Below, in pieces: positions 1 to 30,102 of a stretch of DNA of 32,000 bases. The DNA comes from Candidatus Nanopusillus acidilobi. GTDB taxonomy: Archaea > Nanobdellota > Nanobdellia > Nanobdellales > Nanobdellaceae. Made by a program: the position numbers and the translations under genes. The stretch is taken from positions 570,001 to 602,000 of the forward strand of contig CP010514.1 of the NCBI GenBank assembly GCA_001552015.1, written 5' to 3'. A model generated the notes under the pieces. It had not been told where the DNA came from. It was given only the letters and a program-made list of their open reading frames with translations, and searched no databases. Numbering within the stretch: the first letter of the stretch is position 1; each line of letters opens with the position of its first letter.

Positions 1-2405
1 GTCAAGCCAGCTTTTGGCCTTGTCCTCTACGGCGGATTCCTGACCCGCCTGAGCTGACCTTATGGACCCTGCCGATACCTTTTCGGCAGGGTGCCGCCCC
101 AGCCAAACCGCCCACCTGCTGCTGTCCCCCTTCGGGTTAGCCCTGAAGAACCTAGAGGCGGGTGTTTCATCGTCGCATCCTTCCTACCTAGCGGCAGGAA
201 TTCATTGCTCCCCGCTACCCTACACACCAGGTTCTTCAGAGCAACAACAGGCTACGGTTAAGCTTCACGGGGTCCTTCTTACCCATCGGAAGTCCCTGGC
301 CTTCTCACCAGGATAGCTTTTCAGGGGGCGCCGGCCCGGGACAGTGACGGGCTAGTTACGTCGTTCGCAGAGCCAGCATTTAACTGGCAAGGCATTACGC
401 TACCTTAAGAGGGTCAGAGTTACCCCCGCCGTTTACCGGTCCTTACCCCCCTTGAACGGGGGATTCAGATACCGGTGCTGAGCAGACGTCACCCCCAGTA
501 CAAACCCTTTCGGGCTTGCTGGGAGCTATGTTTTTGGTAAACAGTCCGCCCGCCCTTGTCACTGCGACCTGCGGTCCACACCGCAGGCATCCCTTCTCCC
601 GAAGTTACGGGACCAATTTGCCAAGTTCCCTAGACCGGCTTGACCCCCACGGCCTTAGGCTGCTCACCCAGGGGACCTATTCTGGACTTCGGTACGATCG
701 CCCCGAATCGCATCCTTTCCCTTTTCATTGCCGGAAGGCCTCAGCATAACCCTTTCGGGCCCATCAGGGTTTAGACCGGTTCTCGCCATGACGGCACTCC
801 CCGGTCTTATCCCCCTTAGCACAGTAAGTGGGTTTTACCCCACCCCCGTGTATGCCTAGCCTTCCAGGTCGGGAAAGGATGTTGCGTTACCGCATCTATC
901 GGGGCGGTAGGGGAATATTAACCCCTTTCCCTTTCTCCAGACTCCTCTCGGAGCCTGGATTAGGATCGACTAACCCCAGGCTGATCTTCATTGCCTGGGA
1001 AACCTTTCCCCCTTCGGCCGACGGGATTCTCACCCGTCTGATTCTTACTACCGCGGGGATCTGCATTCCCAACGGCTCCAGGCTTCCTTTCGGGAACCCT
1101 TCTAGGCCATCGGGACGCCCGCCTACCTCACGCTGGCAATGCCAGCGGACCGAGGTCTCGGCGGCTGGCTTAGACCCGTCCGTTTTCGGAGCCTATCCCC
1201 TCGTCGGGTGAGTTGTTACACACTCCTTAGATGATAGCCACTATTAGGCCCACATCCCCGATGTCTTAGGGGACAGACTCCTTCAACGTCGTTCAGCCAG
1301 CACTTTGGGGCCTTAACCTCGGTCTCGGTTGTTCCCGTCTCGGAATTGCGGCTTTCCCGCAATTCCCGTTTCCCGGGCTACGGACCCTATGGCTTCGGAG
1401 TTGGACTCCATACGGAAACCCGTACAGAATCCGTCTCTCTACACCATAGGGATCCTAACCCGAGACCTGGCTAGGGTCAGTTTCGGCGGGGACCGGCTAT
1501 GACCGGGCCCGAGTGGCTTTTCACCTCTACCCCGAGGTCATGAGAGAGGTAAGCCCCACCTCTTCGGGCCTCCACGGGAAACCCCGCTTCGCCCTGCCCC
1601 GGGATAGATCGCCCGGTTTCCGGTCATACCCGAGTGACTAAACCGCCCTTATGGGACGGTGCCCCTCACCTGGAAACCAGGTTACGGGCTTTCGGTTTCC
1701 CTATGGCTTCGGTATAAACCTTAACCTCGCCACTCGGGTATACTCCCCCGCAAGTTCTTCAAAACTCACGGTAGAACTAGCTAGCACCTTATCTGGTACT
1801 CACCCGTCACCAGATTTTCCCAGATAAGGTGCTTAACTAGCCCTACCAGACAATCCCCGCCCGGTTTCAGGCTCTTTTCACCCCCTACCAAGGGTTCTTT
1901 TCACCTTTCGGTCGCCCTACTAATACGCTATCGGACTCGGAAAGTATTTAGCCTTGGTGACTAGTTTCCCCCAAATTCCCGACGGAAATTCAACCGCCGG
2001 TACTCCGGAAGCGAGAAATCCCGTTATTATATTCCCATACGGGACTGTCACCCTCTACGGCCCCGGACTTTCACCGGAGTTCTGAGAATATAATAACGGG
2101 AAGCTCCCGCTCCTTTACCCCACATCTCCTCTAAATTACTTTAGAGGATTCGGTTTGGGCTTCTTCCCTTTCGGTCGCCCCTACTCGGGAAATCACGATT
2201 TGTTTTTTATTCCTGCGGGTACTAAGATGCTTCCCTTCCCCGCGTTCCCCTCCCTTACGGGATGCCTTTCGGCAGGATATCCCATTCGGGAATCTGGAGA
2301 TCAGCGGTTGCATGCACCTCCCTCCAGCTTTTCGCAGCTTGCCACGCCCTTCTTCGGCTTCCGAGCCGAGGCATCCACCGAGCGGGTTCCTGAGACTATA
2401 TATTC
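1..2405 (-). rRNA. rrl: 23S (LSU) rRNA, 5' ~2.4 kb; the gene runs past the window start, so its 3' part is missing. The 5' boundary is approximate
   Basis: Revcomp of ~2330-2380 reads GGTGGATGCCTCGGCTCGGAAGCCGAAGAAGGGCGTGGCAAGCTGCGAAAAGC, the canonical LSU 5' domain. Revcomp of 391-439 reads CCGGTAAACGGCGGGGGTAACTCTGACCCTCTTAAGGTAGCGTAATGCC, a conserved domain IV motif. It is a continuous GC-rich island in AT-rich DNA. Confidence 0.95.
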
Positions 2406-2523: not shown

Positions 2524-4209
2524 ATGAAAGAAAGCAATTTAGATAAGAATTCTAATTTTTCTGATTGGTATAACAATATAATAAGAATTTCTAAGATTAT
2601 TGATGATAGATATCCTGTAAAAGGAATGCCTGTTTATTATTCAAATGGATATTTCGCAATTAGAAAGATATTGAGTATCTTAGAAAATGAATTAGAAAAA
2701 AATGAATTTGAGCCTTATTGGTTTCCAATATTAATTCCATATGAAATATTTAAAAGGGAAAGCGAACATATAAAAGGTTTTGAATCTGAAGTATTTTATG
2801 TTACTCCATCAAAACCTGTAGAAGAAGAAAAAGAAATAAAATATATATTAAGACCAACATCAGAAACTGAAATGTATTATATGTTTTCTTTATGGATAAA
2901 ATCTTATAGAGACTTACCTTTGTTAACTTATATGACAAATACAGTATATAGATATGAAACAAAAGCAACAAAGCCATTAATTAGAGGAAGAGAAATTTTA
3001 TGGAATGAAGCACATACTGCACATAAAGATTTAGATGATGCAGAAAAAATGATAAAAAAATCTATGGAAATATATTCAAAAATATTTTGGGATCATTTAT
3101 CAATACCACATATATGGGTAAAGAGACCAGATTGGGATAAATTTGCTGGAGCAGATTATACTTTAGCTGCAGATACTATATTACCTGACGGAAGATTTTT
3201 ACAAATTGGAACTACACATTTATTAGGAAGAAACTTCTCTAAAGCATTTAATATAATTTTTGAAGACGAACATCCATTTATAAAAATAGATAAAAATAAA
3301 TTTGAAGCATTTAATGAAGATAATTATAGATATGAAATAGAAATTATTGAAAATAAAATAAAAATAAGATTATATAATAATAAAGGAGAATTAATTAAAT
3401 CATATGAAGAAAATATTGAGTTTAATGGAGAGATATCTGAAGATAATAAAGATTTAATAAATAAAATAAATAATATAATTAAAGATAAATTTAATGAAAA
3501 TAAATTGGTTAATAAGAAATTTGCTTGGCAAACATCTTTTGGAATATCAATGAGAACATTAAGTGCAATAATTTCTATACATGGGGATAATAAAGGTTTA
3601 ATATTACCCTTTGAAATATCCAATATTCAAATAATAATTATACCAATATATTATTCGGAAGATGAAAAAAATAAAATATTAGAATATTGCGAAAATATAT
3701 ATAACTTATTAAAGGAAAAATATAGAGTAAAAATTGATAAAGATGAAACAAAAAGTCCTGGATGGAAATTTAATCAATATGAACTAATGGGAGTACCATT
3801 TAGAATATCTATTGGAAAAAAGGAATTAGAAAAAAATACGCTTACAATATCTATAAGACAATATAATAATAAAGCAAAAAACTATGAAGTAAAATTAGAA
3901 AATTTATTAAATGAATTAGATAGATTAATTATTGAATATGACAAAGAATTGAAAGAAAGAGCAAGAAAATATTTTGAGAATAAAATATTAAAATTAGATA
4001 ATTTAAAAGATCTAGAAAATAATTTAGATAAAAATGTAGCATTTAAAGTTCCTTTCTGTATGAGAGAAGAATGCGCAAAAAATATTAAAGAAAAATATTC
4101 ATTAGAAGTAAGAGGAACTGATATTATACCAGAAGATTCGAAAAATAAAAAATGTATATTTTGTAATAATGATGCAAAATATTATGTATATATAGGAAAA
4201 AGCTATTAG
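2524..4209 (+). CDS. proS: Prolyl-tRNA synthetase, archaeal/eukaryal type, with an ~80-aa low-complexity insertion in the catalytic core
   Basis: 561-aa ORF. Class II core motifs RPTSETEMYYMF, IGTTHLLGRNFSKAF and SIHGDNKGLILP. Cys-rich C-terminal domain (FCMREEC...CIFCNN) ending in ...YIGKSY, the C-terminal Tyr typical of this ProRS type. Confidence 0.9.
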   Translation: MKESNLDKNSNFSDWYNNIIRISKIIDDRYPVKGMPVYYSNGYFAIRKILSILENELEKNEFEPYWFPILIPYEIFKRESEHIKGFESEVFYVTPSKPVEEEKEIKYILRPTSETEMYYMFSLWIKSYRDLPLLTYMTNTVYRYETKATKPLIRGREILWNEAHTAHKDLDDAEKMIKKSMEIYSKIFWDHLSIPHIWVKRPDWDKFAGADYTLAADTILPDGRFLQIGTTHLLGRNFSKAFNIIFEDEHPFIKIDKNKFEAFNEDNYRYEIEIIENKIKIRLYNNKGELIKSYEENIEFNGEISEDNKDLINKINNIIKDKFNENKLVNKKFAWQTSFGISMRTLSAIISIHGDNKGLILPFEISNIQIIIIPIYYSEDEKNKILEYCENIYNLLKEKYRVKIDKDETKSPGWKFNQYELMGVPFRISIGKKELEKNTLTISIRQYNNKAKNYEVKLENLLNELDRLIIEYDKELKERARKYFENKILKLDNLKDLENNLDKNVAFKVPFCMREECAKNIKEKYSLEVRGTDIIPEDSKNKKCIFCNNDAKYYVYIGKSY

Positions 4210-4210
4210 T

Positions 4211-4441
4211 GTGGCCGTAGGCTGCTTTTAGTATATATTCTTCTAAGCGGACAAGCCTTGTACCGCCAGGACATACTTCTCAAGGTGCATATACCCTCTC
4301 CAAGTTTACCCGGAGTTGCCTCCAGGTATTAACCATTCATCTTCATCGGATATATGTCCGTGATTTCTAGTTATGTAGCCAGGGGTTTCCCCCTCCAATT
4401 CCTCGGTGGCTTTATCGGTAAGCAGACCTTCCTACGGCCAC
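4211..4441 (-). ncRNA. Structured GC-rich RNA, best guess a reduced (S-domain-poor) RNase P RNA; identity unresolved
   Basis: GC island with no ORF. An 11-bp terminal helix (GTGGCCGTAGG/CCTACGGCCAC) is followed by a 6-bp second helix. The minus-strand reading gives GAAA- and GCAA-capped hairpins, one with a U.G pair that would be C.A on the plus strand. It also gives segments resembling RNase P CR-I/CR-V (CUAGAAAUCACGGAC ... GUCCGCUUAG, with CGGAC/GUCCG able to pair) and AGAUGAAUGG. Confidence 0.55.
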
Positions 4442-4468
4442 TTTTCTTTTTTATATATTTCTTATAAC

Positions 4469-4476
4469 TATATAAA
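4469..4476 (-). promoter_or_regulatory. TATA box (TTTATATA on the minus strand) 28-35 nt upstream of the 5' end of the 4211-4441 RNA
   Basis: Exact archaeal TATA consensus on the strand favoured for the ncRNA. A T5 run (4197-4201, minus strand) lies 10-14 nt past its 3' end. Confidence 0.35.
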
Positions 4477-4478
4477 TT

Positions 4479-4637
4479 ATGCCTGACCAAATGCCTCTAT
4501 TTACATACCTTGGATTATATAAGTTTGGAAAGGAAAAATCAAAAATAAAATTAAATAGAAATAAAATAATAATATTTATAATTATTTTCGCGGCTCTAGT
4601 ATATATTGCAAATATTTATATATCATGTCTAATTTAG
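4479..4637 (+). CDS. Possible 52-aa single-pass membrane protein (hypothetical)
   Basis: ATG-to-TAG ORF below the ORF-track cutoff: MPDQMPLFTYLGLYKFGKEKSKIKLNRNKIIIFIIIFAALVYIANIYISCLI. It has a basic stretch followed by one hydrophobic helix, and overlaps the next ORF start by 13 nt. No homology recognised. Confidence 0.25.
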   Translation: MPDQMPLFTYLGLYKFGKEKSKIKLNRNKIIIFIIIFAALVYIANIYISCLI

Positions 4638-5077
4638 AAGAAGATTTAGAATATAATAGAAGATATAAGGAAGTCTTACATATATTTAATGTTTCATTAA
4701 AAAATAATAAAGGATTAGAGACTGTTAGAAGTTTTATAAAAGCAGTTATTGAATATTATGATTATGCAATTGAATTATATTTTAAGAAATTATATGAAAA
4801 TAAAATGATTGATGAAATTCCAGACAGTCCAATTAAAAGATATAGAAAAATAATTGAAATTACAAAGGATAAAGAACTTGAAGAATCATTAAAATATTAT
4901 AAACTATTAAAAATTGCTTTAAATTCTGATGCAAGGATAATGAATGAATATAGAAAAAGTATGGTTATAAAATTTAGGACATTGAGCGGGGAAGAATTTG
5001 AAATAAATATAAAAACATTAAAAGATATTGCAGAATCTGTTAAAAAATTTTCTACAATTATTAGTAAATATATATAA
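4625..5077 (+). CDS. Hypothetical protein, predicted all-helical, translationally coupled to the downstream MinD/ParA ATPase
   Basis: 150-aa ORF. Its stop overlaps the next start (TAATG). No recognisable motifs. Confidence 0.6.
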   Translation: MSNLEEDLEYNRRYKEVLHIFNVSLKNNKGLETVRSFIKAVIEYYDYAIELYFKKLYENKMIDEIPDSPIKRYRKIIEITKDKELEESLKYYKLLKIALNSDARIMNEYRKSMVIKFRTLSGEEFEINIKTLKDIAESVKKFSTIISKYI

Positions 5078-5832
5078 TGGCAAAGGTATATACAATATCT
5101 TCTGGAAAAGGAGGTGTGGGAAAAACTTTCTTTTCTATAAACTTATCAAGAGCTCTCTCATTATTAAATTTTAAAACATTGTTAATTGATTTTAACTTAA
5201 GTACACCAAATGTATCAATAAATCTTGGATTAGGTAATGAAAATAACAATATACATAAATTTTTAAGAGGAGAAATTGATATAAAAGACTGTATAAAGGA
5301 ATATAAAGAAAATTTTTATATAATTCCTGGAAGTTTAGATATAAAAGATCTAATATATATTTCTACAGAAAAATTACATAATGGAATAATGGAAATATAT
5401 GATGATTTTGATTATATTATTATAGATTCTGCTGCTGGAATTGGTAAAGAAGCAGTAGAAGCATTAAAGGCTTCTGAAGAGGCAATAGTAATAACAAATG
5501 TTGAAAAATCATCATTAATAGATGCATATAGAGTTACAAAAGTATTAGATAGCTTGGATATAAAAACTTTTGGAATTGTTTTAAATAAAGTTAGAAGAAG
5601 AATAAATTATGTAAGAATTGAAAGATTTTTTAAAAAGCAAATAATCGGTATAATTCATTATGATGAAAATGTACAAATTTCAATGGACAATGGTATACCT
5701 TTAATAGATTATGATATAAATTCTATAGCTTCTAAAGATATAATAGAAATTGTAGAAAAAATGACTGGAAAAGAATTAAAAGTTAAAAATAGATTTATAG
5801 ACAATATATTAAAAATATTCGGATGGAAATAG
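5077..5832 (+). CDS. minD: MinD/ParA-family P-loop ATPase
   Basis: Deviant Walker A SGKGGVGKT near the N-terminus, Walker B-like IIIDSAAG, and a ~250-aa length typical of archaeal MinD-like proteins. Confidence 0.85.
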   Translation: MAKVYTISSGKGGVGKTFFSINLSRALSLLNFKTLLIDFNLSTPNVSINLGLGNENNNIHKFLRGEIDIKDCIKEYKENFYIIPGSLDIKDLIYISTEKLHNGIMEIYDDFDYIIIDSAAGIGKEAVEALKASEEAIVITNVEKSSLIDAYRVTKVLDSLDIKTFGIVLNKVRRRINYVRIERFFKKQIIGIIHYDENVQISMDNGIPLIDYDINSIASKDIIEIVEKMTGKELKVKNRFIDNILKIFGWK

Positions 5833-6095
5833 ATTTTGAATTAGATAAAATATTTGAAACATTGGATAGAAAAAAATATAAAAAAATATTATTGCAATTT
5901 CCTGATGGATTAAAACCATATTCTAAAGAAATATACGATAAAATAAAGGAAAAATATAAAGATATAGAAATATATATTTGGTTTGGATCTGATTTCGGTG
6001 GATGTGATATACCAATATATTTAGATAAATATGGATTTGATTTAATAATTCATTTTGGCCATTCAAAATTTTATAAATTAAAATTGGATGAATAA
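5823..6095 (+). CDS. dph2: Diphthamide synthase Dph2 (2-(3-amino-3-carboxypropyl)histidine synthase), N-terminal fragment only (90 aa versus ~340 aa normally); split gene or remnant
   Basis: KKILLQFPDGLKPY...FGGCDIP...DLIIHFGHS aligns with the first ~85 residues of archaeal Dph2 (..vliQsPEGL...YGACD...alIHlGHS). The ORF then stops, and no other frame continues it. Confidence 0.7.
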   Translation: MEIDFELDKIFETLDRKKYKKILLQFPDGLKPYSKEIYDKIKEKYKDIEIYIWFGSDFGGCDIPIYLDKYGFDLIIHFGHSKFYKLKLDE

Positions 6096-14925: not shown

Positions 14926-15000
14926 TGCCCCCACCGGGATTTGAACCCGGGTCTCGGGGATGAGGACCCCGTATCCTGGACCTGACTAGACGACGGGGGC
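14926..15000 (-). tRNA. tRNA-Glu (anticodon CUC)
   Basis: Revcomp: GCCCCCG-TC-GTCT..GGAT-A-CGGGG-TC[CTC]AT-CCCCG-AGAC-CCGGG-TTCAAAT-CCCGG-TGGGGGC-A. Full cloverleaf, no encoded CCA. The stop codon of the upstream ORF shares nt 15000. Confidence 0.9.
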
Positions 15001-15284
15001 TATGGATTATTTAATATATATTCAGAATTTTGAGTTATAACTATTATATTTGTTCCATTATCATAACATATCATATTCTCTTCTAAACAAATATTGTAAT
15101 ATGTTTGATTTATAGTAGAAGAATAATTTGGATATAATAATAATTTAACATAAAAATCTTCTGCAATATATTTACCAATATTTGGTTGATAATAGAAATT
15201 ATTTTGTAAATTTGAAATAAAAAATAATGTAATAAATAATATTAAAACTAAATATAATAAAATAAATTGGGATTTCATTTCCAA
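15000..15284 (-). CDS. Small secreted/pilin-like protein (hypothetical), third of a three-gene cluster
   Basis: 94 aa. N-terminus is MEMKS-QFILLYLVLILFITLFFI, with K-S before a ~20-aa hydrophobic segment, compatible with a class III/prepilin-type signal. The Asn/Tyr-rich ectodomain has N-x-S/T sequons and 2 Cys. It overlaps the upstream ORF by 10 nt. Confidence 0.5.
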   Translation of the reverse strand: MEMKSQFILLYLVLILFITLFFISNLQNNFYYQPNIGKYIAEDFYVKLLLYPNYSSTINQTYYNICLEENMICYDNGTNIIVITQNSEYILNNP

Positions 15285-15619
15285 TATATATCTACATAAT
15301 CTACTGAGCCATTAATAATATAAAAAGTTTCAATTCCCTGTTCAGATTCATTTAAATTCGTATTATTAAATGCAACTTGTCCATTTATTTCAACATAATA
15401 ATATGGTAAAATATTTGTAACAATTTGATATAAACTACTGTTTAGCTGTTGTGTATTATTTAGATACATATAATTTATTGATATTAATGATGCATATAGA
15501 TCTTCTTTATTATACCCTCTAATATAGAAATTACTATAATATGTTGAAGTTAAAATAAAATATAAAACAATTATTACAACTACTAATTCAATAAATATTG
15601 ATATACTAAAAGATTTCAT
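15275..15619 (-). CDS. Small secreted/pilin-like protein (hypothetical), second of the cluster
   Basis: 114 aa. N-terminus is MKS-FSISIFIELVVVIIVLYFIL (K-S, then a hydrophobic helix with Glu). The ectodomain has several N-x-S/T sequons. It overlaps the upstream ORF by 4 nt (ATGA). Confidence 0.5.
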   Translation of the reverse strand: MKSFSISIFIELVVVIIVLYFILTSTYYSNFYIRGYNKEDLYASLISINYMYLNNTQQLNSSLYQIVTNILPYYYVEINGQVAFNNTNLNESEQGIETFYIINGSVDYVDIYWK

Positions 15620-16011
15620 TGAACTAATACACTAACCAAATATAATGAGCCATTATAATAGCAAACTCTATTAAATTCTATATAATTATTTTGCATATTT
15701 GTTATATTATCATTACTAAATATATATTCTTGACTAGTATTACTTAAATTTTCATATATTATTTCATATGGAAAACTTGCTAAATTATCCATTATACTTG
15801 GATTAAAATTATTTGATGTTAAATTACAAATATTGTCAGTATACTGTTCTGTAATTTCTTTAATCAAAACTCTTCCATCCATAAATTGATTATATATAAT
15901 TTGATATTTTTCATTAATATTATAAATATAAGAAACTTTCTCCATTAATAATAATGTAATAAAAAATATTACTAAAACAATTACAAATAGCTCAAAAAAC
16001 CTATCTAGCAT
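15616..16011 (-). CDS. Small membrane-anchored/secreted protein (hypothetical), first of the cluster
   Basis: 131 aa. N-terminus is MLDRFFELFVIVLVIFFITLLL. The ectodomain has sequons (NLT, NLS, NTS, NIT, NGS) and 2 Cys. Confidence 0.5.
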   Translation of the reverse strand: MLDRFFELFVIVLVIFFITLLLMEKVSYIYNINEKYQIIYNQFMDGRVLIKEITEQYTDNICNLTSNNFNPSIMDNLASFPYEIIYENLSNTSQEYIFSNDNITNMQNNYIEFNRVCYYNGSLYLVSVLVQ

Positions 16012-24548: not shown

Positions 24549-25364
24549 ATGATTGCTGGATTAGAGATACATCAACAAATTGATACAAAAGAAAAACTAT
24601 TTTGTAATTGTCCTACGAACTTAAGTGATAAATATGATTATAGAATTGAAAGAAAATTGAGAGCAACATTGAGTGAAATTGGGAAAAAGGATATTGCTGC
24701 AGAATATGAGACTATGAAGGATAAAAAATATATATATGAATATTCTAAAGATTATTCTTGTTTAGTTGAACTTGATGAAGAACCTCCACATTTAATTAAT
24801 ATTGAAGCACTAAAATTTGGAATATTAATTTCAACTTTTTTTAATATGTATATTCCAAAGGTTTTACAGGTTATGAGAAAAATTGTTGTAGATGGATCAA
24901 ATACATCTGGTTTTCAAAGAACATTATTATTATCATTAAATGGAGAATTAAAATATAAAGATAAAAAAATAAGTATTGGAACAATTTGTATTGAAGAAGA
25001 TGCTGCAAGAAAAAATGAAGAAGGAGAAGATTACATAATTTATAGATTGGATAGATTGGGAATACCATTAATAGAAATATCTACAGGTCCTGATTTAAAA
25101 GATCCAAAAGAAGTAAAGGAAGTAGCTGAATATATTGGATTAATATTAAGATTAACTGAAAAAGTAAAAAGAGGATTGGGAACTATTAGACAGGATGTAA
25201 ATATATCAATAGAAGGAGGAGAAAAAATTGAAATAAAGGGCGTACAGAATTTAAAAATAATAGATAAAGTTTGCGAACTTGAAGTAAAAAGACAAGAAAG
25301 AATGATAGAATGGAAAAAAATTATGAATGAAAGAGGTATTGAAGGATACGAATTAATAGAATAG
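24549..25364 (+). CDS. gatE: Glu-tRNA(Gln) amidotransferase subunit E, N-terminal fragment (271 aa versus ~620 aa normally); split gene or truncation
   Basis: GLEIHQQIDTKEKLFCNCPT, CLVELDEEPPH, MRKIVVDGSNTSGFQRT, YRLDRLGIPLIEIST and KRGLGTIRQDVNISIEGGEKIEIKGVQNL are GatE-specific. The ORF stops after the cradle domain, and an unrelated gene follows. Confidence 0.8.
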   Translation: MIAGLEIHQQIDTKEKLFCNCPTNLSDKYDYRIERKLRATLSEIGKKDIAAEYETMKDKKYIYEYSKDYSCLVELDEEPPHLINIEALKFGILISTFFNMYIPKVLQVMRKIVVDGSNTSGFQRTLLLSLNGELKYKDKKISIGTICIEEDAARKNEEGEDYIIYRLDRLGIPLIEISTGPDLKDPKEVKEVAEYIGLILRLTEKVKRGLGTIRQDVNISIEGGEKIEIKGVQNLKIIDKVCELEVKRQERMIEWKKIMNERGIEGYELIE

Positions 25365-26331: not shown

Positions 26332-27942
26332 ATGAGATTACAATCTGAAATGATTATAGCATTAATATTGTTAATAGTAGGAGCTCTTGCTACTGTAATA
26401 ATATACAATATAATATCTCCAAATTTAAATATAATAAATCCTTCTGGACAGGAAATTTCAAGATCTTTAGAATTAAATTTCCAATTATTAGATTATTTTA
26501 TAGTAAATAATACATTATATGCATATGTAAAACCCTCAGAACCAGTTAATTATTCTCAAGTATTTGCAATTTTAAATGATAGATTAGTTAATGTTTATCC
26601 TTATAATTCAAATGGATCAATTGTAAATCCATATAATAATGGTTTATTAATTGTTGTTGCAAATTTATCTCAAATTCCTCCAGATCAAAATGGAAATTAT
26701 AAATTAGAAGTTGGATTAGAAAATGATATAATTGGAGTATTTGATATAAAATATATTTCTAATTCATTAATTAATTATTTTCAACCTCCAATTGTTTTTA
26801 ATATATCGGTCATATCAACCTCCCTTACATGTCAATTACCATATTTACCTTTAATATTATACAATAGTCAATCTATTCCAACTCCTTCTCCTTTTCAACA
26901 GGATATTGCAATATGTAATGGAACAATTAATATTGGTAATAGTTTTGCATATGTAAATAATGCAACATTATTTAATGAAATAAATAGAAATGGATCTAAT
27001 GTATACTTTACAACAACCTGTAATAGTACCCCAAATATATATTCATGGTATGAAGGTCAATTAATTAATGGAAGTACATATTGTGATGTTTGGTGGATAA
27101 ATTTATCTAATGGAATTCCTGCTAATTCAAATATTACAATATATATGTATATAGGAAATAGTAGTGATAATTATTATTCCCAATATTATCCATATGTTGG
27201 TACTTCTCCTCAAGTAATTTCAGGATATGATAATGGTCAAGATGTATTTATAGCATATGGATATTTTAACAATACATTTGATGGATGGAGTAGATATGTT
27301 TATTCAGGATCATTTTCTCCAACAGCAACTTCAAATGGTATTGAAATGATAAATAATAATGGTGGTGAAGGTACATATATTTTACCTCCAAATAATGAAA
27401 ATATTCCAGAAATACCTTTAATTGTTGAAGAAGCCTGGTATCATACTCAAAGTGCAGATGCAAATACTATATCCTTATTTGGAAATACAAATAGTCAGGT
27501 AGATGTAACTAATATAGGAGGTACAGACGGTGGTTCCACACCAGCATCTAGTTCATCTACATTTGTACAATTTGAATATTATGGTGGACAACCATATGTT
27601 ATGTTAAAATCTGCAGTAACAGATCAATATTTAAGTTATACATCTTTCCCAACATCTGGTGGAACTGTTTATTCATATTTAATAGTTAATTCTACATATG
27701 CACAAACAGGATATTATATTTATAATTCTAATCAAGTATGGGCTCCTTTAACATTATTAGATACATATAATATAAATTATAATGGATATACATATTATAA
27801 TTTAAATTATAATCCTTTCCAATATGGTACATTAGAAATTGGTGCAGGAACTGGTGGAGCTGCTTCATACCAATATGAAGAATGGGTTGTTGCTAGAGCA
27901 TATCCTCCAAATGGTGTAATGCCTTCAATTTATATTGGTTAA
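26332..27942 (+). CDS. Large surface protein: FlaF/FlaG-like N-terminal anchor and domain fused to a DUF2341/LamG-like (concanavalin-fold) module; putative adhesin
   Basis: 536 aa. N-terminus is MRLQSEMIIALILLIVGALATVI. The middle region (...SWYEGQLINGSTYCDVWWINLSNGIPANSNITIYMYIGNSS) matches the DUF2341 signature (..vWVkvp.ipa...tiymYYGN). The tail EWVVARAYPPNGVMPSIYIG is also typical. Many N-x-S/T sequons. Confidence 0.7.
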   Translation: MRLQSEMIIALILLIVGALATVIIYNIISPNLNIINPSGQEISRSLELNFQLLDYFIVNNTLYAYVKPSEPVNYSQVFAILNDRLVNVYPYNSNGSIVNPYNNGLLIVVANLSQIPPDQNGNYKLEVGLENDIIGVFDIKYISNSLINYFQPPIVFNISVISTSLTCQLPYLPLILYNSQSIPTPSPFQQDIAICNGTINIGNSFAYVNNATLFNEINRNGSNVYFTTTCNSTPNIYSWYEGQLINGSTYCDVWWINLSNGIPANSNITIYMYIGNSSDNYYSQYYPYVGTSPQVISGYDNGQDVFIAYGYFNNTFDGWSRYVYSGSFSPTATSNGIEMINNNGGEGTYILPPNNENIPEIPLIVEEAWYHTQSADANTISLFGNTNSQVDVTNIGGTDGGSTPASSSSTFVQFEYYGGQPYVMLKSAVTDQYLSYTSFPTSGGTVYSYLIVNSTYAQTGYYIYNSNQVWAPLTLLDTYNINYNGYTYYNLNYNPFQYGTLEIGAGTGGAASYQYEEWVVARAYPPNGVMPSIYIG

Positions 27943-29010: not shown

Positions 29011-29070
29011 TCCCCCGCTTAGACGAACCAATATGAAAAGATGAGTATTGGTAACGATGGGCGGGGGACA
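29011..29070 (+). ncRNA. Candidate single-hairpin H/ACA-type guide sRNA (tentative)
   Basis: 8-9 bp GC lower stem (TCCCCCGC/GCGGGGGA). A symmetric ~8+8 nt internal loop forms the pocket (TAGACGAA / TAACGATG). The 6-bp upper stem (CCAATA/TATTGG) is capped by the purine-rich loop TGAAAAGATGAG, whose GA steps could form a K-loop. ACA lies at 29068-29070, at the foot of the stem, 5 nt upstream of tRNA-Ser. Confidence 0.4.
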
Positions 29071-29075
29071 TTTAT

Positions 29076-29295: not shown

Positions 29296-30102
29296 ATGGT
29301 CATGACAACAATAAAAGATACATTTCAAAAGGCTACGAATCCATTTCGTAAAGCAATAGATGATAGATGGCAGTATCTTTCAGATGACGATAGAAGAGAA
29401 ATAGCAAGATATCTAGCAGATAAGAAAGATATAATAGAACGTTACTTTTATACTATCAATAAGAATAATAGTGATAAAGTACTAGATTCTATTGAACAAT
29501 TTGCACGTCTTAAAGGATCTTCTATAGATCTACCTACTATATCTCAGTATTTTGATATGCTAGAAAACCTTGATAAAATAATAGAAGAAATAGATAAAGG
29601 TTTCTTCAATTCTTTACCCAAATATAATAATGTAGTAAAACCAAACAACTATTATATGGAAATCGCATTTGACATAGATGGAAATCCAAAAGATCAAAAA
29701 GGAACTTTAGTTGATATATTAAAAAAGCTAATAGGAAACGTCGGAGCTAGAGGTTATCCTATATCTTATTATAACGGAACTGACAACTTTCCAATACAAT
29801 ATTATATGGAATTCTATCCAGATCGAACTCACATAAGAATTTTCATTCATACATCCTATATACCCCCAGCTATAGTAGGTTATTTACTTTATGAGCTAAA
29901 CAATATTAAAGGAAAAGAATCAATAATACCTCCAAGCGGACAACAATATCATATTATTAATAATGTAGCAGGAATTATTAATAATCGCATAGGAATAGAC
30001 ATAGATCAACGTATAGCTTCTTATGCCGGCCAAGCTCTTTGGCAATATAGTTTCTTATATAGATTTTTTAGGGTAGAAGAAATTCCGTATTGGATTACTT
30101 AA
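29296..30102 (+). CDS. Hypothetical protein with atypical codon usage (possibly horizontally acquired)
   Basis: 268-aa ORF with no recognised motifs. 6 of its 14 Arg codons are CGN (cgt x4, cga, cgc) and CTN Leu codons are frequent. Neighbouring genes use almost only AGA/AGG and TTA. A TATA-like AAATTTATAAA lies ~25 nt upstream. Confidence 0.65.
   Translation: MVMTTIKDTFQKATNPFRKAIDDRWQYLSDDDRREIARYLADKKDIIERYFYTINKNNSDKVLDSIEQFARLKGSSIDLPTISQYFDMLENLDKIIEEIDKGFFNSLPKYNNVVKPNNYYMEIAFDIDGNPKDQKGTLVDILKKLIGNVGARGYPISYYNGTDNFPIQYYMEFYPDRTHIRIFIHTSYIPPAIVGYLLYELNNIKGKESIIPPSGQQYHIINNVAGIINNRIGIDIDQRIASYAGQALWQYSFLYRFFRVEEIPYWIT

Follow-up and report, generated by a model that had tools for sequence, protein, structure and literature searches.

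A reduced archaeal type A RNase P RNA without P2 and P3 beside proS in a nanoarchaeote

RNase P is the enzyme that trims the 5′ ends of tRNAs. The 32,000-nucleotide stretch of DNA analyzed here (the window) raises the question of whether a 231-nt GC-rich island behind the prolyl-tRNA synthetase gene (proS) encodes the RNA subunit of this enzyme and, if so, from which strand and in what form. A first-pass annotation, made from the sequence alone, had proposed a minimal RNase P RNA on the minus strand and had added that such a gene would matter in a nanoarchaeal host, as Nanoarchaeum equitans had been reported to lack RNase P. The host is indeed nanoarchaeal: the ProRS encoded in the window shares 90-93% identity with its counterparts in Candidatus Nanopusillus and Ca. 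Nanobsidianus stetteri genomes, 66-74% with those in other Nanopusillaceae, in strain YN1 and in Nanobdella aerobiophila, and 47% with that of N. equitans. The angle itself is not new: the matter was settled in 2013, when Nst1, closely related to the host, was reported to retain RNase P (PMC3655853). The locus is very probably a minus-strand gene for the RNase P RNA subunit of a terrestrial nanoarchaeote of the Nanopusillaceae, with a TATA box at 4476-4469 and a transcript predicted to begin around 4445 and to end shortly beyond 4211.

The island matches the archaeal RNase P RNA model over its full length

The island (4211-4441) has a GC content of 0.485, against 0.225 in proS and 0.216 in 4442-6000, and no ORF of at least 50 aa was found inside it in the ORF listing. 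Upstream lies proS (2524-4209, stop codon 4207-4209), whose 561-aa product is a prolyl-tRNA synthetase of the archaeal type (Pfam tRNA-synt_2b, HGTP_anticodon and ProRS-C_1). The ORF-less GC island described between the proS stop and the next genes is thus borne out by composition and ORF data alike. Its termini are perfectly complementary over 11 bp (GUGGCCGUAGG/CCUACGGCCAC), followed by CUGCUU/AAGCAG. The GNRA-capped hairpins of the minus strand (GGGG-GAAA-CCCC and CCUGGAG-GCAA-CUCCGGG, the latter with a U.G pair) and the tandem-G.A region GAUGAAGAUGAA//GGAGA are all located where the first-pass annotation had placed them.

At gathering thresholds, Rfam reports nothing at the locus and finds in the window only the 23S rRNA and five tRNAs. 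A permissive scan of 4150-4520 (cmscan, E-value mode), in contrast, matched the archaeal RNase P family RF00373 on the minus strand only, at 4445-4207, with 68.2 bits and an E-value of 5e-19, and the match spans model positions 1-288 of 288. Default settings miss the locus because 68.2 bits fall below the 84-bit gathering score of this family (clan CL00002). The shortfall stems from deleted model positions, namely 23 in P2/P3, 6 in the 3′ strand of P2 and 36 in P15-P17, so that the sub-cut-off score marks a deletion variant and not a non-homolog. Neither SRP RNA nor any other family gave a credible match in the permissive scan, the runners-up being a thermometer element (E 0.26) and a snoRNA (E 5.8). 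The proposed identity as an RNase P RNA is therefore upheld by the covariance model, with the SRP alternative set aside. One practical consequence is that an RNase P RNA gene of the Nanopusillaceae scoring below the Rfam cut-off is left unlabelled by standard annotation.

Complete specificity domain, trimmed catalytic domain

The alignment to the model assigns the following features, all read on the minus strand.

4207-4445, minus strand: RNase P RNA gene (Rfam RF00373 match); its core from P1 to P1′, 4441-4211, is 231 nt
4434-4441, minus strand: 5′ strand of P1 (GUGGCCGU), pairing with 4211-4218; 8 pairs, 100% paired, 4 compensatory
4420-4433, minus strand: CR-I, made up of J1/4 (AGGA) and the 5′ strand of P4 (AGGUCUGCUU); aligns to AGGAAAgUCC of the model
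4417-4419, minus strand: 5′ strand of P5 (ACC), pairing with 4262-4264; A-U becomes G-C in YN1 and Nanobdella
4407-4410, minus strand: 5′ strand of P7 (GCCA), pairing with 4265-4268; 4 of 4 pairs compensatory
4395-4406, minus strand: P8 hairpin CCGA-GGAA-UUGG; 2 of 4 pairs compensatory
4381-4394, minus strand: P9 hairpin AGGGG-GAAA-CCCCU; 4 of 5 pairs compensatory, GNRA loop conserved
4372-4380, minus strand: 5′ strand of P10/11, pairing with 4269-4275 by model alignment and covariation
4360-4371, minus strand: CR-II (ACUAGAAAUCAC), J11/12, half of the predicted T-loop anchor for the tRNA elbow; aligns to AC.AGAAACGAcAC
4284-4359, minus strand: P12, with a basal stem, K-turn region, upper stem and GCAA-capped tip (loop 4319-4316)
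4336-4347 and 4297-4301, minus strand: K-turn region of P12, GAUGAAGAUGAA (4347-4336) opposite GGAGA (4301-4297)
4276-4283, minus strand: CR-III (UUGAGAAG); aligns to UGAAACG of the model, conserved
4258-4261, minus strand: J5/15 (ACAA); aligns to GCAAG of the model, conserved
4249-4257, minus strand: putative P15 remnant, GG/CC around a variable 4-5 nt loop, replacing the 41-nt P15-P17 region of the model
4228-4248, minus strand: CR-IV (GCUUAGAAGAAU) and an AU-rich linker (AUAUACUAA); the 3′ strand of P2 is absent
4211-4227, minus strand: 3′ strands of P4 (AAGCAGCCU, 4227-4219) and P1 (ACGGCCAC, 4218-4211), forming CR-V

In this family, P4 is a bulged-U helix built from CR-I (AGGAAAGUC) and CR-V (ACAGAA..GGCUUA). 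Here AGGAAGGUCUGCUU pairs with AAGCAGCCU over nine pairs, four of them compensatory; the helix is 99-100% paired, and the bulged U lies at window position 4426. The helix CUGCUU/AAGCAG, initially read as P2, is consequently part of P4, bulged U included, which has CR-I (UAGGAAGGUC) and CR-V (ACUAAAAGCAGCCUAC) on its flanks and shows covariation at 4 of 9 pairs. In the model alignment, P1 (GUGGCCG) directly abuts CR-I (UAGGAAGGUC); 23 model positions, comprising the 5′ strand of P2 and the entire P3 hairpin, are deleted, as are six bases of the 3′ strand of P2 between CR-IV and CR-V (ACUAAAAGCAGCCUAC). No bases are left in the RNA for either the P2 pseudoknot or the P3 hairpin. The catalytic domain also lacks P6, P16 and P17, while P15 is cut to a putative stub of two G-C pairs: 41 P15-P17 positions of the model correspond to a 5-nt loop between GG and CC in the window copy.

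The specificity domain, on the other hand, is complete, with P7, P8, P9, P10/11, CR-II, CR-III and P12 all present. AGAAAU within CR-II is nearly invariant, and CR-III reads UGAGAAG in the model alignment. Two further assignments of the first-pass annotation shift as a result: CUAGAAAUCAC, proposed as CR-I, is CR-II in the model alignment, and AGAUGAAUGG, likened to a conserved RNase P segment, belongs to the K-turn region of P12 and is not CR-IV. By analogy with the linker that stacks on tRNA pair 1-72 (PMC6565675), J5/15 ACAA would be the equivalent of the “A anchor.”

Covariation supports the model-derived helices across 31 distinct homologs

Homologous RNAs were collected from 34 loci, 13 in genomes and 21 added by a pattern scan of metagenomes; a profile-HMM search recovered all homologs. 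They comprise 31 distinct sequences whose identity to the window copy ranges from 97.5% down to 66%; the genome copies extend from Nanobsidianus stetteri Nst1 (L012, 95%) to Nanobdella aerobiophila (71%). In the 13 genome loci, the RNA directly follows proS on the opposite strand, so that the two genes are convergent. Neither nhmmer nor cmscan found an RNase P RNA behind proS in N. equitans (L014) or in a more distant relative (L013), and for N. equitans the empty site is consistent with the literature, according to which this species has no RNase P.

To evaluate the helices, we transferred them from the Rfam alignment onto two MAFFT alignments, A1 with 14 sequences and A2 with all 31. In A1, 99.2% of the cells are paired and 37 of the 66 pairs changed on both sides; in A2, the corresponding values are 98.8% and 40 of 66. 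None of 500 shuffles reached any of these measures in either alignment, and sliding the partners by 1-3 columns reduced pairing to 33-42% in A1 and 33-43% in A2. Compensatory pairs occur in each of P1, P4, P5, P7, P8, P9, P10/11 and all three segments of P12. P7, for instance, appears as GCCA/UGGC, ACCA/UGGU, GGCA/UGCC and GUUA/UAAC, and by eye also as ACUA/UAGU in Nanobdella and AACG/CGUU in one further homolog (L010). In P12, 15 (A1) to 17 (A2) of the 24 pairs are compensatory, and its core GAUGAAGAUGA is invariant in 11 of the 14 A1 sequences, with substitutions in four sequences across A1 and A2. GG and CC of the P15 stub are both invariant, so no covariation signal is possible there. AUAUAUAC in the CR-IV segment is invariant in 31 of 31 sequences. 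Compensatory changes in P1 and P4, which the first-pass annotation had named as a check, are thus found both in an 8-bp P1 and in the true P4.

Two candidate helices were rejected on the same alignments. The terminal complementarity of 11 bp is real, but covariation backs only its outer 8 bp as P1: the ninth position (A1 column 13) faces an invariant U and varies among all four bases. On the aligned sequences P1 is accordingly limited to 8 bp, and the CCU that follows it pairs with the AGG of P4 instead of the adjacent AGG. A helix proposed by RNAalifold (A1 columns 181-185/198-202) that would replace P5 and P7 is mostly invariant with breaks; it was dismissed because P5 and P7 are compensatory at 5 of 7 pairs, while the RNAalifold helix shows no covariation. 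A few homologs deviate from the consensus. The most divergent one (L089, 8755-8993 on the plus strand; 66% identical) is GC-richer, has an 11-bp P1 and carries an A in place of the otherwise invariant bulged U of P4 (GGACCGCC), and three related metagenomic copies (L081, L083 and L097) share an uncompensated U-to-C change in P4 that yields a C.A mismatch (A2 columns 23/228).

Given the trimmed catalytic domain, one may wonder whether the gene is a decaying, non-functional relic on its way to the loss seen in N. equitans. This reading goes back to the wording “partial degradation” in the 2013 paper (PMC3655853), and the large deletions in the catalytic domain, the failure to detect POP5 in Nst1 (PMC4919917) and the complete loss of the gene in the sister lineage N. 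equitans would all suit it. A decaying gene, however, does not account for some 99% of the pairs being kept by compensatory change down to 66% identity, nor for the retention of all five conserved regions and the promoter (see below), and yeast mitochondrial RNase P RNA, which likewise lacks P2 and P3, is reported to be active (PMC12974513 supplement). Since pairs, conserved regions and promoter persist at 66% identity, we conclude that purifying selection acts on the structure, and we regard decay as highly unlikely.

Even less probable is the specific form that had been suggested for the RNA, a type-T-like minimal molecule with terminal P1 and P2, a P4 formed by CGGAC and GUCCG and a largely missing specificity domain. 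The RNA is short (231 nt) and CGGAC is complementary to GUCCG when the window sequence is taken by itself, but the putative helix (4355-4359 with 4248-4252) shows 0 compensatory changes, its flanking and outer pairs are broken in 4-5 of the 14 sequences and it performs no better than shuffles. Moreover, CR-I is UAGGAAGGUC and CUAGAAAUCAC is CR-II in the model alignment, and P7-P12 are present with abundant covariation, the deletions being located in the catalytic domain. On this sequence comparison, the type-T-like model is already refuted. What stands of the original proposal is a shortened minus-strand RNase P RNA in a nanoarchaeote; how the helices were assigned and which type of reduction was assumed proved wrong.

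Strand, promoter and predicted transcript ends

The minus strand is fixed by three lines of evidence, namely the one-strand Rfam match, the many G.U pairs and the fold statistics, in agreement with the strand that had been favored initially. The minus-strand fold has an MFE of -86.9 kcal/mol and a z-score of -6.13, with 0 of 200 shuffles as good, while the plus strand reaches -70.2 and -3.10. A plus-strand element, be it a structured 3′ UTR of proS or its terminator, is therefore the least credible reading and already disfavored: it would explain the position directly after the proS stop, the plus-strand T-runs at 4442-4452 and the terminator-like hairpins called on that strand, but not the much weaker fold, the many G.U pairs that turn into C.A mismatches or the confinement of the Rfam match to the minus strand.

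Two signals flank the gene, both of which the first-pass annotation had noted.

4469-4476, minus strand: TATA box TTTATATA in front of the RNase P RNA gene, after a CATAA BRE-like stretch; read directly
4197-4201, minus strand: U5 run, putative archaeal terminator, 10 nt after P1′ and within the last codons of convergent proS; read directly

The TATA box, conserved as (T/C)TTATATA in 14 of 14 relatives inspected, probably acts as the promoter of the RNase P RNA gene. Its distance to the first G of P1 is 22 nt in most relatives, a spacing typical of archaeal transcripts that begin at this G or next to it. In the window, the distance is 26 nt, with four extra bases (GAAA) between TATA box and P1 (4442-4468, minus strand) compared with most relatives. 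Given these extra bases, initiation is predicted near 4445, and the primary transcript should either be slightly extended at its 5′ end or begin with another base. The U5 run is likely an archaeal terminator; it is present in most relatives and missing in L006, L008 and L011.

Proposed mechanism and protein partners

How could so reduced an RNA work? In the cryo-EM study of the M. jannaschii enzyme, the parts used for catalysis and measurement are P4 with CR-I, CR-IV and CR-V, the “A anchor” of J5/15 and the T-loop anchor of CR-II and CR-III, while P1 and P9 bridge the two domains and the K-turn of P12 serves L7Ae (PMC6565675). By its sequence, the RNA described here retains all the parts that would be required for measuring and cleaving pre-tRNA. 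The active site would consist of P4, bulged U included, together with CR-I, CR-IV and CR-V on its flanks, the adenosines of J5/15 would stack on the first acceptor pair, the predicted T-loops of CR-II and CR-III would bind the tRNA elbow and the K-turn sequences of P12 would serve L7Ae, whose binding to P12 we infer by analogy (PMC6565675). With P2 and P3 lost, P4 would stack directly on P1, turning the active-site helix into an ordinary nested helix without a pseudoknot.

No RNase P protein gene was found by Pfam within the 32-kb window, so the protein partners rest on the literature for relatives. For Nst1, an RNase P RNA plus p21, p29 and p30 was reported (PMC3655853), published surveys list RPP21, RPP29, RPP30 and L7Ae (PMC3655853, PMC4919917), and POP5 was not found (PMC4919917). 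By analogy, the RNA is most likely part of a protein-dependent ribozyme with RPP21, RPP29, RPP30 and L7Ae, and we infer its activity in this setting. In the M. jannaschii enzyme, the P2/P3 junction is the seat of Pop5, and Rpp30 touches P2-P3 in both RNAs and organizes a dimer (PMC6565675). That P2 and P3 are missing here is in line with the report that POP5 could not be found in Nst1, and the simplest reading would be that the scaffold of the catalytic domain was trimmed together with its protein platform. It is tempting to speculate that the loss of P2 and P3 is coupled with a genuine loss of POP5, giving a monomeric archaeal RNase P with four proteins and a non-pseudoknotted active-site helix; published papers hint at such a co-loss, yet we consider it rather doubtful at present. 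If true, structural studies would gain a minimal catalytic domain that occurs in nature.

Other features of the window

Several observations concern the neighborhood. A 52-aa ORF (MPDQMPLFTY..., 4479-4637, plus strand) is divergent from the RNase P RNA gene, and its ATG lies 3 nt from the TATA box; its start region is kept in relatives (GGTCAGGCAT upstream of the TATA box), and it has no credible Pfam match, the sole one listed having an E-value of 8.3. The large-subunit rRNA gene (1-2402, minus strand, 57% GC), truncated by the window start, is bordered on its 5′ flank by a GC-rich inverted repeat (CTCTACTTAAGGTAGAG) that may form a processing stem. A 90-aa ORF (5823-6095, plus strand) matches just the first 58 of 302 positions of the diphthamide synthase profile and is a split diphthamide synthase gene; a split DPH2 is listed for Nst1 (Nst 222-440) by Podar et al. 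2013 (PMC3655853). A 271-aa ORF (24549-25364, plus strand) covers only the N-terminal catalytic domain of GatB/GatE and may be a split or shortened gene. Three successive ORFs of 94, 114 and 131 aa (15000-16011, minus strand) adjoin the tRNA-Glu and L22/S3 genes and have no Pfam match even at E 10, and no Pfam family was found for ORFs 26332-27942 (536 aa) and 29296-30102 (268 aa), both on the plus strand. Finally, tRNA-Ser (29015-29075, plus strand) is preceded by a GC-rich stretch (GATGGGCGGGGGAC), and there is no TATA-like box within 60 nt of it, unlike tRNA-Ala and tRNA-His. This suggests a long leader or cotranscription and would thus make this tRNA a real RNase P substrate.

Comparison with known RNase P RNAs

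Compared with type A (RF00373), P1, P4, P5, P7, P8, P9, P10/11, P12 and CR-I to CR-V all align, while the RNA lacks P2, P3, P6, P16 and P17, has a putative P15 of 2 bp and a P4 that forms no pseudoknot, and scores 16 bits under the cut-off. Among the archaeal forms, it counts as a deletion variant of type A. Type M, found in Methanococcales and Archaeoglobus, also lacks P6, P16 and P17 and has a P15 that ends in a hairpin loop (PMC6565675, PMC7191817). Its P12 K-turn is bound by L7Ae (PMC6565675), and P12 of the window RNA likewise carries K-turn sequences. Type M, however, lacks P8 and keeps P2 and P3, and a type M assignment is ruled out here by the presence of P8 (2 of 4 pairs compensatory) and the missing P2 and P3. 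Type T (also called type P) of the Thermoproteaceae and Pyrobaculum is likewise a shortened archaeal RNase P RNA, but its reduction is the opposite one: P11, CR-II, CR-III and P12 are absent from it and its catalytic domain is retained (PMC7191817), while the window RNA has an intact specificity domain and a trimmed catalytic domain.

Yeast mitochondrial RNase P RNA differs from the window RNA in lacking most of the specificity domain. This RNA (RPM1) shares with ours the lack of P2 and P3 (PMC12974513 supplement).

The closest counterpart is the reduced RNase P RNA of Nst1, which is the same gene, 95% identical, at the same site by proS and likewise devoid of P2 and P3. It was found with Infernal by Podar et al. 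2013 (PMC3655853), and a remodelled catalytic domain was suggested by Samanta et al. 2016 (PMC4919917). A PNAS paper of 2026 described the deletion of P3 and P2 in Nanoarchaeales (Nanopusillaceae), revised the secondary structure of the Ca. Nanobsidianus stetteri RNA in SI Fig. S12 and called the P2 pseudoknot “important but not essential” (PMC12974513). The RNA described here, with a host in that family and both P2 and P3 missing, does not differ in kind from the Nst1 form; it comes from another strain or species, with a ProRS 90-93% identical to those of the nearest genomes. As the reduced form is already known (2013, 2026), the window establishes nothing new in kind. Our analysis is an independent reproduction of the P2/P3-less form with added covariation statistics. 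Taken together, it confirms that terrestrial nanoarchaeotes have an RNA-based RNase P, unlike N. equitans, and that this RNA can do without the P2 pseudoknot and P3; both statements have been published before.
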